A DNA stretch of 64,000 nt from Eledone cirrhosa (Eukaryota), in assembly GCA_964016885.1 (NCBI GenBank), contig OZ024742.1, forward strand, positions 315,704,001 to 315,768,000, written 5' to 3'. This document shows positions 13,336 through 46,834 of this stretch, one piece after another (the stretch's first letter is position 1; every line of letters starts with the position of its first letter). Below the pieces are notes generated by a model. That model did no database searches. It was given only the letters and a program-made list of their open reading frames with translations, and was not told where the DNA came from. A program made the translations under genes and the position numbers.

Positions 13336-13493
13336 GAAAAGAGTCAGGACCCCGACGGCTGAGCTCCGGGCGTTTCGGATCTAGCAGTCGAAACGGGCGG
13401 AGCTCAGCCGTCGGGGTCCTGACTTTTTTCATATTACCTACTCAACTACCCTAAGTTATGGTCCACCTGGTATATTACCACACCGTCTTTGTT
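13336..13493 (+). mobile_element. Palindromic half-hammerhead element (family P, copy 1)
   Basis: Hairpin 13336-13430 containing GAAACGG...GCCGTC-GGGGTC, followed by a unique tail. TA arrays on both sides. Confidence 0.75.
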
Positions 13494-13562
13494 ATATATA
13501 TATATATATATATATATATATATATATATGTGTGTGTGTGTGTGTGTGTGTGTGTGAGAGAG

Positions 13563-13753
13563 AGTCCCGGGTTCAATCGGGGTTAACCACAGTAGGTAAG
13601 GTACTCAATACATTAGTAGAGTGTATACAACAAATTTAATATAGAAATGACTTCGACACGACTAACCTGTTTCATTCGAAGGAAATCATCAGGAAAGCCC
13701 TTCGAATGAAACTGTTCTAGTCCTGTAGAAGCCATTTCTATATTAAATATGTT
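13563..13753 (-). mobile_element. Hammerhead-bearing fold-back element related to the 4686/6072 family
   Basis: Minus strand GGCTTTC-CTGATGA-TTTCCTTCGAAT-GAAA-CA...TGTC/GAAGTC (13649-13699). An inverted partial copy lies at 13699-13747. Confidence 0.7.
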
Positions 13754-14242
13754 ATATATATATATATGTGTATGTATATATATATGTATATATATATATA
13801 TATATATATAGTGTTTAGAAAAGATTGTTTTGGTAAAAACAGGAGTAAGCAGGAGAACGCTCTCAACAATCGTAGAGTTTAGTTACGATGGAGAATTTTA
13901 TAAAAATAACAAAATAAGATGCTGAGGTTACATATATCGTTTAATCATAAATGTAACCTCAGCATCTTATTTTGTTATTTTTATGTGTGTATATATATAT
14001 ATATATATATATATATATATAAGTTACTGCTTCGAATGAAATTTAAAAAAAATATATTGGTGGAGCTGACTTGAGATCTACTAGTGACAACCTGCAGCAT
14101 TTTGATTAACCTATACTTTTGTCAGACAATATGTTTAATTACGTCATCTATTAATCAATATTTTAATACATACATACATATATATATATATATATATATA
14201 TATATATATATATATTATATATATATATATATATGTATGTAT

Positions 14243-14447
14243 AACGAAGGAAGTGTAGTAAGGAACCAGGTGGACCATAACACACCAGAGTACTCGATAT
14301 TATGGGTAGTAGAGAGTCGGTAATAGGAAAAGAGTCAGGACCCCGACGGCTCAGCTCCGGCCGTTTCGGCAGCTAGTTCTGAACCATTCAGAACTAGCTG
14401 CCGAAACGGCCGGAGCTGAGCCGTCGGGGTCCTGACTCTTTTCCTAT
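14243..14447 (-). mobile_element. Family P copy 2: perfect 61-bp-arm hairpin plus tail
   Basis: Arms 14323-14383 and 14387-14447 around a CCA loop. Confidence 0.85.
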
Positions 14448-14599
14448 ATATATATATATATATATATATATATATATATATATATATATATATAAAGAGA
14501 GAGAGGTAGAACACTGAAAGGTAAATTACGTAGTGGTAGAGCACTCAGTCCATGGGACGAGATTGGTAGAAGTAGTAACACAACAGTTAGTTCACCATA

Positions 14600-14639
14600 C
14601 CGAGAACAATTGTTTCACTTTAGCGGATCTTCAGCTCGG
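14600..14639 (-). ncRNA. Minimal type I hammerhead ribozyme
   Basis: Minus strand CCGAG-CTGAAGA-TCCGCTAAAGT-GAAA-CAATTG-TT/CTCGG. Perfect 5-bp stem I, palindromic stem III ACAATTGT, GUU triplet. Confidence 0.75.
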
Positions 14640-14777
14640 ATATATATATATATATATATATATATATATATATATATATATATAAGCTTGCGTGTTACAT
14701 AAGTTGGATAAATGATTTCGGATTCATAGAAACACTTCGGACATTTTTTATCATCCTATTTGTCCAGGTCTGTTTAT

Positions 14778-15100
14778 TAACCTGTTAGTTCTTTCGTTAC
14801 TTTGGTATTGTGTGGTTGGGTTTTGCCTACCGCAATGTTCAATTTGTCAAGCTAAGAGTTACGGCCCTTACCATTCTGAGTTCAAATCCCGCCGAGGTTA
14901 ACTTTGCCTTTCATCCTTACGGGGTCGATAAAATAAAGTACCAGTAATACACTGGGATAATTGCTGGCCTTGTGCCAAAAGTAGAAACAGTTATTACTCT
15001 AAGGACACCCTTACTGAGTGCTTTGCTAACTCATTCCTATTGTAGGTCGACTTTGCTTGCCACAGCCAAAGCTTCTATTTTACTAAGCTTCCACTTGTGT
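14778..15100 (+). repeat. Interspersed repeat (inverse copy at 42886-43084) interrupted by a SINE B fragment at ~14855-14990
   Basis: Both flanks are reverse complements of contiguous sequence at 42886-43084. Confidence 0.75.
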
Positions 15101-15103
15101 ATA

Positions 15104-43681: not shown

Positions 43682-43883
43682 AATGGTGATATAAATAATG
43701 ACTATTGGGAAATGCAACAGTCATGCATTTTTCTTTGTCTCTAAATGATTTGGGTTCAATCGAAGGTGGAAGCTGGCTAGAAATAAACATCATCAGAAAA
43801 AAAATAACATCTTCAATGATAAACATCGCTAGTCACTCACACACATGCATCGAACCAAATACACCAACACTACAAGATAGTAT

Positions 43884-44427
43884 GTAGTAGTAGTAGTAGT
43901 AGTAGTAGTAGTAGTAGTAGTAGTAGCAACAGCAGTAGTAGTAGTAGCAGTATTAGTAGCAGTAGTAGCAGTAGCAGTAGTAGCTGTAGTAGTAGTAGTA
44001 GTAGTAGCAGCAGCAGTAGCAGTAGTAGTAGTAGTAGTAGTAGTAGTAGTAGCAGCAGTTGTAGTAGTAGCAGTAGCAGTAGTAGTAGCAGTAGGAGTAG
44101 TAGCTGTAGTAGCAGTAGCAGTTGTAGTAGTAGTAGTAGGAGTAGTAGTAGTAGCTGTAGTAGTAGTAGTAGTAGTAGTAGTAGTAGTAGTAGTAGTAGT
44201 AGCTGTAGCAGTAGCAGAAGCAGTAGTAGTAGTAGCAGTAGTAGCAATTGTAGTAGTAGCAGTAGCAGTAGTAGTAGTAGCAGTAGTAGTAGTAGCAGTA
44301 GTAATAGTAGCTATAGTAGTAGTAGTAGTAGTAGTAGTAGTAGTAGTAGTAGTAGTAGTAGCAGTAGTAATAGTAGCTATAGTAGTAGTAGTAGTAGTAG
44401 TAGTAGTAGTAGTAGTAGTAGTAGTAG
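43884..44427. repeat. (TAG)n/(CAG) compound trinucleotide array
   Basis: Direct read. Confidence 0.95.
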
Positions 44428-44937
44428 CCTTAAGTGATATTTGAAAAAAAAAAGCTTTAGATCGATACGAACGTAAGAAAAAAAAATGTAACACGCATAT
44501 ACAATCATAACACAATGTTATTTATCTATCTATCTATCTATCTATATATATATATATATATATATATATATATATATATATATATATATATATATATATA
44601 TATATCAACATATCATCTGAAGACCGTAGGTTCGATTCAATGGGGGGCCCCATTCCTTATAAATCTAAATACACACTTTCCCTCTCTCTCTCACTGTTCA
44701 AGTCCCTAAAAATTGCAGTCAGGGATTATTTGCTTTCTGCTAAATCATGAGGATGATATATATAAGATGAGAGGTAGTAATCGTTATGAAACAGACGATA
44801 ACAACATCACATGTTGAAAATCTCCGCTCCATGTGTATTTCTAGAAGTGGTCGTTTATTGGTGGATGTTACCGCGCCTTATTTTCTTTTCCGTTTATCTA
44901 CACCAACCATCATTGAAGTAACACTCCTTGCCTACAG

Positions 44938-45608
44938 CTCTTTCTCTCTCTCTCTCTCTCTCTCTCTCTCTCTCTTCCATCCACTCTCCCTCTCTCTCTT
45001 TCTCTTCCATCCACTCTCTCTTTCTCTCTCTCTCTCTCTCTCTCTCTCTCTCTCTCTCTCTCTCTCTCTCTCTCTCTCTCTCTCTCTCTCTCTCTCTCTC
45101 TCTCTCTTCCATCCACTCTCTCTCTCTCTCTTCTATCCAATCTCTCTCTCTCTCTCTCTCTCTCTCTCTCTCTCTTCCATCCACTCTCTCTCTCTCTCTC
45201 TCTCTCTCTCTCTCTCTCTCTCTCTCTCTCTCTCTCTCTCTCTCTCTCTTCCATCCTCTAGCTCTCTCTCTCTCTCTTCCATCCCCTATATCTCTCCCTC
45301 TCCACCCTCTCTCTTTCTCTCTTCCATCCCCCTCTCTTTCTCTCTGTCTCACACTCTCTCCCCCACCATCTCTCTCTCTCTCTCTCTCTCTCTCTCTCTC
45401 TCTCTCTCTCTCTCTCTCTCTCTCTCTCTCTTCCATCCTCTAGCTCTCTCTCTCTCTCTTCCATCCCCTATATCTCTCCCTCTCCACCCTCTCTCTTTCT
45501 CTCTTCCATCCCCCTCTCTTTCTCTCTGTCTCACACTCTCTCCCCCACCATCTCTCTCTCTCTCTCTCTCTCTCTCTCTCTCTCTCTCTCTCTCTGTCTC
45601 TCTCTTTC
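44938..45608. repeat. Polypyrimidine (CT)n tract with TTCCATCC variants and a 182-bp internal duplication
   Basis: CCATCCTCTAGC occurs at 45251 and 45433. Confidence 0.9.
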
Positions 45609-45881
45609 ACACACACGCACACATTGACGCACAACATAAACACATATGTACATTCATATATATATATATATATTATACTTTCACTCGTTTCCATCATTAT
45701 ACTGCGTCCATGCTGGGGCAGCGCCTTGATTTAAGATTTAGTCGATCATATCGGCCCCAGTACGTATTTTTTTCAAGCCTGGTACTTATTTTATCGATCT
45801 CTGTGTAAGCGAATTAATCTCAGAATATTGATGAACTTAACACGTTTAGGAATTAAAACAAAAACAAAAATAAAAACAGAA

Positions 45882-46108
45882 ACTACTACTACTACTACTA
45901 CTACTACTACTACTACTACTACTACTACTACTACTACTGTTTCTGCTGCTGCTCATGCTTAAGGCAGCAGCTGCTTCTATCACAATAACCTACTACTACT
46001 ACTACTACTACTATTACCACCACCACCACCACCACCACCACCACCACCACCACTACTACTACTACTACTACTACTACTGCTGCTGCTGCTGCTGCTGCTG
46101 CTGCTGCT
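45882..46108. repeat. (CTA)n/(CCA)n/(CTG)n compound array
   Basis: Direct read. Confidence 0.9.
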
Positions 46109-46380
46109 ATTTCCCTCACTCCCGCTCTTTTCTAGTGACCCTTTTCACTTAATAATAAGCGACTGCACACATACATCCTCCCCTCCCCACCGCCTTCACA
46201 CACACATAGATATTGATATCAATGTGGGTTGTAGATTTATAGGTTTGTAGTCGAGTTGTACTTTATACATACACACGCACGCAAACACCCGTGTATATAT
46301 ATGTATATATATAGAGAGAGAGATAGAGAGAGAGAGCAAGACCATCGATCAGCGATGGAAAGAGCATTATATATATATAT

Positions 46381-46574
46381 ATAGGAACCAGTACGACCCC
46401 GACGGCTGAGCTCAAGCCGTTTCGACGGCTAATTGAGTCCAGAATTAGCCGTCGAAACGGCTTGAGCTCAGCCGTCGGGGTCGTACTGGTTCCTATTACC
46501 CACTCTACTATCCTAAGTATTGAGTACATTGATGCGTTATGGTCCACCTGGTTCCTTACCACATTTCCTTCGTT
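46381..46574 (+). mobile_element. Family P copy 4
   Basis: Hairpin 46381-46496 plus tail. Confidence 0.85.
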
Positions 46575-46632
46575 ATATATATATATATATATATATATAT
46601 ATATATATATATATATATATATATATATATAT

Positions 46633-46834
46633 GAACGAGTAGGACCCCGACGGCTGAGCTCAAGCCGTTTCGACGGCTAATTCTGGACTCTGGACGAGTC
46701 CAGAATTAGCCGTCGAAACGGCTTGAGCTCAGCCGTCGGGGTCCTACTCGTTCCTATTACCCACTCTACTACCCTAAGTATTGAGTACTTTGGTGCGTTA
46801 TGGTCCATCTGGTTCCTTACCACATTTCCTTCGT
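46633..46834 (+). mobile_element. Family P copy 5
   Basis: Hairpin 46633-46753 plus tail. Confidence 0.85.

Follow-up and report, generated by a model that had tools for sequence, protein, structure and literature searches.

Hairpins with one tail in Eledone cirrhosa are head-to-head stubs of a Penelope-like retrotransposon, probably made by twin priming on one RNA

Introduction

Penelope-like elements (PLEs) of the Hydra clade, exemplified by Hydra-1_Obim, are described in the available part of PMC8557442 as units under 3 kb, with (TA)n targets, a hammerhead near the 3' end and a single ORF. This ORF combines RWR(K), DKT, a CxCx5C linker, a GIY-YIG-type motif, and CxxC and CxH around E/N. 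The same text names the origin of PLE tandem and inverted repeats, and of their tails, as open. An inverted copy with a one-sided tail is already a known PLE architecture: in Adineta vaga Penelope, according to the portions of PMC3846280 consulted, the pLTR carries a TATA and an initiator-like motif, and head-to-head inverted pLTRs occur with a one-sided tail and with junction palindromes, read there as self-priming on an antisense template. For Poseidon PAc of Anolis, the accessible sections of PMC11167929 report, in vitro, two RT start sites bounding a tail of 30-40 nt, AT-rich targets, cutting and extension of both target strands, and ribozyme cleavage that is dispensable for insertion; in these sections, the two sites are tied neither to head-to-head inversions nor to run-off at an RNA 5' end. 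PLE hammerheads, in the excerpts of PMC4209133, are of type I and lie in pLTRs, include a U3-A8 core variant and opposite-strand pairs, and belong to mostly truncated copies.

The family treated here shares these features of all four systems, from the Hydra-type ORF motifs, (TA)n targets and hammerhead close to the 3' end to the head-to-head pLTRs, the two start sites and the U3-A8 core. It differs in its unit of 3.5 kb, in a tail of about 80 nt, and in a hammerhead whose non-canonical core and long loop II are unlike those listed for Hydra-1_Obim in the part of PMC8557442 at hand; it is a different family. Compared with the ribozymes in the same excerpts of PMC4209133, stem III is not minimal (5-6 bp), loop II has some 35 nt, a C3/A8 mismatch is found in roughly a quarter to a third of the full cores, and only the 3' half is present in most copies. 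Non-LTR retrozymes, defined in the text available of 10.64898/2026.07.22.740005 as arrays of tandem units that all carry a complete type I hammerhead, were also considered; this identity was ruled out, the copies here being dispersed, inverted and half-ribozyme.

Five hairpins in the window

The window is a 64,000-nt stretch of contig OZ024742.1 (assembly GCA_964016885.1, positions 315,704,001 to 315,768,000). Sequence inspection confirms the five asymmetric hairpins that an earlier note had reported, each inside (TA)n and each with one tail of about 80 nt: 13336-13492 (+), 14244-14444 (-), 29719-29910 (+), 46384-46573 (+) and 46633-46834 (+). The reading of their arms as the 3' half of a hammerhead is also upheld, this pattern occurring 9 times in the window and never in 100 pair-shuffles, and a parent element has been found. 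The short arm of copy 1 (13336) carries a substitution in the pattern. Rfam gave no match in the window, which contains only hammerhead halves. In all five stubs, the 5' half is missing and no catalytic core is complete, so self-cleavage in cis is not expected.

Positions in the element are counted from the A of AGTCCAG (0), which places the 3' arm of stem II at +8..+17 and its 5' arm at about -45..-37. On this scale, the ten arm ends in the window include nine at 0 to +7, on the 3' edge of the ~35-nt loop II, and one at about +16. The hairpin centres are overlaps or fillers of 0-7 nt, and the parental stem II is not there; the claim that the copies are folded back exactly at stem II is not confirmed.

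In copy 1, the inverted short arm (13336..13377, minus strand) belongs to an older subfamily, whose start was read from L056, L063 and L199; it begins at the short RT start site and ends at about +16. Its tailed arm (13374..13492, plus strand) runs from about +2, overlaps the other arm by 4 nt, holds the hammerhead 3' half at 13390-13418 and has an internal deletion in the tail. Copy 2 (14243 in the earlier note) has its element sense on the minus strand, with a tailed arm at 14244..14384 (5' end at about +1) and a plus-strand short arm at 14387..14444 (5' end at about +2); the short arm and the long arm of this copy have two non-consensus changes in common. The inverted short arm of copy 3 (29719..29777, minus strand) reaches 0 plus one base, either an extra G or overlap, and contains sequence missing from the tailed arm (29777..29910, plus strand), which runs from about +3/+4 with the hammerhead 3' half at 29791-29819.

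Copy 4 joins an inverted short arm (46384..46434, minus strand), ending at about +6/+7, to a plus-strand tailed arm (46435..46573) that runs from 0 and has a non-parental G (46435) in front of it, with the hammerhead 3' half at 46454-46482. In copy 5, the inverted short arm (46633..46690, minus strand) extends to 0 and then carries, on its own strand, a non-parental G (46690). The junction (46691..46696, plus strand) consists of a 5-nt filler repeating the inverted arm, probably templated, then a non-parental G. The tailed arm (46697..46834, plus strand) covers 0..+137, with GAAA at +18, predicted cleavage after +40 (46737), the short start site near +57..+60 and the tail to +137.

The parent element and its hammerhead

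The hairpins are short 5'-truncated head-to-head stubs of an abundant (TA)n-targeting PLE. The family is huge, with 42,968 exact tail-motif matches, and TATATA directly follows the tail in 75 of 90 cases. Its parent is a 3.5-kb element (L229, L230 and L231 are examples; the unit of L230 is 3,546 nt), and a partial-tandem pLTR with an inverted 5'-truncated copy is seen in these three as well as in L235 and L268. The single ORF, of 717 aa, encodes an RT plus, at its C-terminal end, a GIY-YIG endonuclease (IYQC..YIG), with the motifs RLRWR (35), DKT (117), FDIESYY, MGATDS, YRDD, CxCx5C (CNCPDRSIC, 572), IYQC..YIG, CxxC (CNLC, 670) and CxH (CKH, 698); by eye, no CCHH motif is present. Judged on motifs, this set matches the Hydra clade as far as the consulted part of PMC8557442 describes it, and the N-terminal half resembles the Hydra-1_Obim protein given there, again by eye. 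Searches of Pfam, NCBIfam and PDB with the ORF returned no match. Its Atlas neighbours (0.96-0.99) carry HTH_animal, and some GIY-YIG and RVT_1; a HMMER library search yielded 17,236 unnamed relatives, the best at 54%.

Read-through arms contain stems I-III of a full type I hammerhead with a U3-A8 core and a loop II of about 35 nt. CTGANGA, which the note had found absent from the copies, is missing from all five and also from the parent, because the core reads T/CTGA-N-AA. A full-core parent exists, as the note had anticipated, while the form it had specified, GACCCC-CTGANGA upstream of the stem, has no match. A relaxed CTGANGA parent was rejected as well: it matched 35 of 48,532 sites, and the 30 fetched were junction accidents or chimeras. 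Permutation to type II or III is ruled out, the tail having no CTGANGA.

Among 59 full cores, the 3-8 pair is U3-A8 in 42, C3/A8 in 15, U3-G8 in two and C3-G8 in none. In the parent hammerhead alignment, 92.7% of cells are paired; its 12 rows, near-identical to each other, hold no double-sided (compensatory) change, and the minimum-energy fold of the parent is no better than those of shuffles (z=0.82). Exact genome-wide counts fall from 48,532 for the 3' half to 3,614 for the 5' half, the patterns being of unequal stringency.

Two fixed outer ends

The ends were studied in a sample of 88 tail-anchored elements with 79 junctions, from the first 13.7 Mb of one contig; it was chosen by exact tail motif, which favours young copies, and its end table was curated by hand. 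The element has two fixed outer ends, at about +57..+60 and at +137/138, and TAT comes next in the element after each. They bound a tail of about 80 nt, compared with the usual 30-40 in PLEs. Of 27 long two-armed copies, 26 combine a short with a tailed end, and the remaining one has two short ends. Likewise, 78 of the 79 sampled inverted arms begin at the short site or close to it, or show erosion at this point; one has a second tail. The junctions of this family thereby link the two RT start sites, known from another PLE, to inversion.

Inner ends and the origin of the two arms

The inner ends show a sharp stop: among the 125 arms reaching that far, 105 have their end in a zone of 18 nt beyond stem II, on the 3' edge of loop II. 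Ends at -7..+10 account for 58/79 inverted and 47/88 tailed arms, and 10 of each pass -10. The inner ends are independent and heterogeneous; stopping or passing is coupled between the two arms (joint table 8/1/1/43, Fisher p=9e-8).

These ends bear on the proposal of the earlier note, that a single cDNA snaps back on stem II to serve as primer for the second strand. The matching of arms within loci would suit such an event, and self-priming has been proposed for inverted PLE junctions in the passages seen of PMC3846280. However, the form that it requires, a tailed arm with all of loop II and an inverted arm ending at +7..+17, is found in 0/79 junctions, which leaves stem II as an integration primer unsupported. 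Snap-back also forbids an inverted arm with sequence missing from the tailed arm, yet the inverted arm extends at least 3 nt further upstream in 31/79 (including copy 3 of the window, 29716 in the earlier note), nine of the 79 have no overlap at all, and in L094/L178 the inverted arm again goes further upstream than the forward one. The fixed short end is left unexplained. This origin is scarcely credible, and the large junction record excludes it for most copies of the family. A single junction of the 79 joins inside the GC-rich stem III palindrome; the joins therefore coincide with cDNA ends, and the best internal annealing site is not where they form.

A mobile hairpin copied whole, as a MITE or from a SINE-like master, might seem suggested by tens of thousands of similar short copies with TA flanks. 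It is very unlikely, since all 32 automatically called junction strings differ, a recurrent junction type counts no more than 85 exact copies across the genome, the ends lack symmetry, and the arms continue into a parent that encodes an RT. The inversion thus forms anew at each insertion, as the note had held, and the copies do not behave as ordinary MITEs. Annotation could nonetheless mistake the tens of thousands of short hairpins that the family yields for MITEs or SINEs.

Both arms of an insertion derive from one source lineage. In 53 parsed pairs (8 further pairs were left out), 41 show no more than one difference in 11 nt, whereas shuffling gives 9.4 such pairs on average and 18 at most, so that the match of each arm to its own locus holds. 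Two separate RNA molecules, or gene conversion after insertion, could also lie behind both arms and their matching: a few pairs differ (e.g., L222, L225), two RNAs from one locally active master would match too, and the non-consensus changes of copy 2 are present on both arms. Against this, inspection by eye of little- or non-overlapping copies, where the arms cannot pair, finds the inverted arm and the tail in the same subfamily in 11/11 (the two-tailed L127 is left out), so arm matching requires no hairpin conversion, and stopping and passing are coupled. The version with two RNAs is viable only if both are of the same isoform from the same locus, and this explanation as a whole is quite unlikely.

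Proposed mechanism

The hairpins probably result from twin priming on one sense RNA, with run-off at the RNA 5' end in loop II and end-joining. A dimer of the RT-endonuclease would nick both strands of (TA)n, target TA would pair with the TAT next to each start site, and both cut target strands would then prime reverse transcription from the two fixed sites on one sense RNA. With a polymerase II start at 0 or -4, inside loop II, the stop zone would mark the RNA 5' end and its cap; both cDNAs would run off within the hammerhead loop, an extra G would be the copied cap, and the cDNAs would be end-joined by microhomology, with fillers. Since an RNA starting in loop II would hold only the 3' half of the ribozyme, self-cutting in cis would be impossible for it. 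Read-through or circular RNA without that 5' end would give rise to the long copies.

In L1 twin priming, the second target strand primes a second cDNA and microhomology joins the two, with an inversion but no duplication as the outcome; in this family, the two cDNAs overlap, each starting from a fixed internal site. L1 also acquires a cap-derived 5' G, and retroviral strong-stop DNA is a run-off to the capped end. A retrovirus-like strong-stop transfer is unsupported here as the route to long copies and was rejected: none of 9 second passes stops at 0, and the only two single jumps seen at 0 are L103 and L058, the latter selected on that motif.

The following wider account is offered tentatively, as conceivable more than established. 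Transcription would start in the element's own loop II, the mRNA would begin with a disarmed half-ribozyme, and an RT dimer on one RNA would use two fixed sites to prime both strands; about four fifths of the insertions would represent 'double strong-stop' run-offs that reach the cap and are joined head-to-head. PLE inverted repeats in general would then stem from twin priming on sense RNA, in place of the self-priming on an antisense template favoured in the sections seen of PMC3846280, and tens of thousands of junctions would be its record. The run-off reading, which predicts that an RNA 5' end can be mapped within the ribozyme, was not found in the literature searched, which comprised few subscription papers.

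Promoter-like motif and extra G at the stop zone

The same element and twin priming could also combine with a stop zone of another nature, where the RT halts at the AT-rich loop II or at a bound protein, or where a nuclease cuts the RNA and leaves it uncapped. Several observations suit a stall or break of this kind. The ends spread over about 18 nt, two copied-through pLTRs (L249 and L260) end near the 5' arm of stem II, part of the G excess is templated, and no RNA ends appear in the 13 runs available, all of them contigs, the three RNA-like ones having almost no coverage (3, 0 and 0 short pieces). Nevertheless, a helix block is expected at +17, before the stem opens, and not after it, and stochastic stalling would leave the arms uncoupled, contrary to observation. 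Moreover, all nine long copies with a tail into the 5' UTR and an upstream pLTR pass the zone twice, and TATA- and initiator-like motifs are suitably spaced there: TATA-like TATTTAAA lies at -29, and initiator-like TYAGTC and TCATTT at the zone itself. Stem II overlaps this TATA-like sequence, which some subfamilies have only in a weak form. Overall, a stall or break is unlikely, and run-off at an RNA 5' end is retained as the preferred reading.

The parental base before 0 is T or C in 37/37 read-through arms, while exact counts in the genome give 5,781 G versus 959 A at this position. Among cases fetched as separate samples and judged by eye, the partner arm leaves about 20 of 47 G and 11 of 21 A unexplained, which scales to roughly 5:1. 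The cleanest cap test, on single fillers, was discarded, with G/A/C at 85/7/5 at the test junction and 70/17/5 at a no-cap control; the similar bias of the control indicates that part of the excess of G comes from templated filler. When both arms extend to 0 and 2-16 nt separate them, the preceding base, read by eye, is T68 G14 C11 A7 among 100 ends, a modest G excess. Most arms in this class run to -2..-4, so the end is not a single base.

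Parent element and family size

The five hairpins that an earlier note had placed at window positions 13336, 14243, 29716, 46381 and 46633 were all found, each inside (TA)n and each with two unequal arms, the longer having an extension of about 80 nt. They are almost certainly stubs of a Penelope-like element (PLE), and PMC3846280, PMC8557442 and PMC4209133 already describe this architecture for PLEs. In the 3.0-Gb genome of the same species, whose microsatellite load is suggestive of a cephalopod, the tail motif has 42,968 exact matches and the hammerhead 3' half 48,532 (with two arms both counted), the reversed-pattern controls for both giving 0, and the 5' half has 3,614 genome-wide.

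The search for a parent with the CTGANGA core, as proposed earlier, failed; a parent with a full core does exist, and was found in unselected loci whose arms extend upstream far enough to give an entire type I hammerhead. In order, this has stem I, the core T/CTGA-N-AA, stem II around a loop of about 35 nt, then GAAA, stem III and finally GTC; its helix pairs are conserved but too invariant for covariation to show. Among 59 full-core arms, the 3-8 core pair is U3-A8 in 42, C3/A8 in 15, U3-G8 in 2 and C3-G8 in none; by eye, the first 100 of the 3,614 5'-half matches give roughly 64, 34, 2 and 0. The U3-A8 core is a PLE hammerhead variant already known (PMC4209133). The mismatched C3/A8 subfamily (loci L131, L143, L144 and L233; sampled contig C1) makes up about 1/4 to 1/3 of full cores, and its spread agrees with insertion not requiring cleavage.

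Upstream of the ribozyme, and in the same sense, lie a 3' UTR and a 717-aa ORF; the unit length at locus L230 is 3,546 nt. The ORF carries motifs that PMC8557442 gives for the Hydra clade, and by these motifs the parent would belong to that clade. TATATA adjoins the tail in 75/90 copies. The outer ends map to about +57..+60 and +137/138 (position 0 being the A in the loop II sequence AGTCCAG, with positive values toward the tail), and TAT comes next in the element at both. Long two-armed copies, chosen by 5' half or ORF, have one end of each kind in 26/27 cases and two short ends in 1/27. This pair agrees with a PLE tail bordered by two reverse transcriptase (RT) start sites, both target strands having been extended in vitro (PMC11167929).

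The searched literature, with subscription papers and Repbase outside the search, yielded no description of this family, its enlarged loop II or the sharp coupled stop described below; the family may be annotated elsewhere. Passages of PMC13282606 report Penelope-like expansions in one octopus, with none of these details.

Junctions between the arms

Inner ends were mapped twice and then hand-curated in the first 90 of 100 tail matches listed on contig C1; two pairs were merged as single elements, leaving 88, of which 79 have an inverted arm. Of the inverted arms, 58 end within the zone -7..+10, 11 end at +11..+60 and 10 go past -10; of the tailed arms, 47 stop in the zone, 18 at +11..+60 and 13 beyond +60, with another 10 going past -10. 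Thus, 105/125 arms that get to +10 stop inside 18 nt; in selected long copies, arms extend for hundreds to thousands of bases. The stop is coupled: of the elements whose two arms get as far as +10, 43 have neither arm passing, 8 have both and 2 have just one (p=9e-8).

The earlier proposal, that the cDNA snaps back on stem II and primes the second strand, is contradicted by these junctions. The fold-back form occurs in 0/79; 31/79 inverted arms exceed the tailed arm by 3 nt or more at the upstream end, and in 9 elements the tailed arm starts beyond +60 and shares no sequence with the inverted arm. At the junction, arms overlap briefly, abut bluntly or are separated by filler, and 32/32 automatically called zone junctions are distinct. 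As only 1/79 joins falls in the GC-rich stem III palindrome, and the zone lies beyond stem II, reached once stem II has been copied, the joins lie at cDNA ends.

The accompanying claim that arms pair within loci held: 41/53 pairs differ by at most 1 of 11 nt (8 pairs skipped), against 9.4 when shuffled, and subfamily markers are concordant between arms in 11/11 copies with little or no arm overlap. The simplest reading is that two cDNAs, primed by two cut strands on one RNA, are end-joined, and such twin priming is very probable relative to fold-back. An enzyme dimer would cut and prime both strands, and a joining pathway would presumably link the two cDNAs.

Early truncation, beyond +10, is commoner in tailed arms (31/88) than in inverted arms (11/79; sample L099-L228), and early tailed-arm ends cluster near +57..+66 and +88..+98. 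It possibly results from collision with a second RT complex.

Cause of the stop

In the parent, TATTTAAA lies at -29 and motifs resembling the initiator consensus lie at -4 and 0. TATA plus initiator is noted in a pLTR in PMC3846280, and PMC2377424 gives Drosophila Penelope an internal promoter without TATA. The base preceding 0 is G in 0/37 read-through arms; in genome copies, it is G in 5,781 and A in 959. By eye, the partner arm fails to explain about 20/47 G (two rows perhaps being one duplicated element) and 11/21 A fetched cases, and the scaled unexplained G:A ratio is about 5:1. The extra G occurs in 3/5 window copies, one ambiguous.

Two results count against a cap: one-base fillers are G/A/C 85/7/5, with a control of 70/17/5, and at 50 loci with both arms extending to 0 (100 ends), the preceding base is G in 14 and A in 7. 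Both arms have G at 4/50 of these loci, versus about 1 expected, and most arms there run to -2..-4. Weighing the G excess against the filler control and the 50-locus ends, an RNA 5' end is the probable cause of the stop, and a capped transcription start at the zone is only possible.

Nine copies have an upstream pLTR from which the tail reads on into the 5' UTR. Strong-stop transfer was rejected as their origin, since the second pass never halts at 0 (0/9); read-through or circular RNA is the likely source. Apparent template jumps near position 0 were seen at loci L103, L058, L031, L036, L046, L048 and L308, all but L103 picked by junction motifs; their targets are the element's own 3' UTR or ORF, plus recurrent chimeras with another repeat family.

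Other repeats in the window

A second hammerhead-bearing family with a canonical CTGATGA core (matches at 4686, 6095 and 13669) occupies 4508-4990, 5820-6218 and 13555-13790. It has the same pattern of (TA)n insertion and one tail, with arms inverted head-to-head at 13630-13752 and arms that do not overlap near 4890-4990, and offers an independent test set for twin priming. CTGANGA..GAAAC matches number 6 in the window versus 0.41 expected, the further ones lying at 14612-14634 (minus strand), 54371-54396 and 59930-59963 (both plus). The match at 14612 sits in a short insert flanked by (TA)n, probably another PLE stub.

Many other asymmetric inverted repeats, several adjoining (TA)n, lie at 13900-13984, 28137-28715, 35363-35619, 35755-36159, 47943-48194, 49611-49678 and 54733-54878, and are likely stubs of different elements sharing this insertion mode. 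The palindromes at 12751-12922 and 29427-29671 are near-perfect, each with a (TA)n tract at its centre and duplicated flanking sequence; they may reflect fold-back at microsatellites or artefacts of the reads. A 517-nt inverted pair, 96% complementary, lies 8 kb apart at 22605-23121 and 31140-31656.
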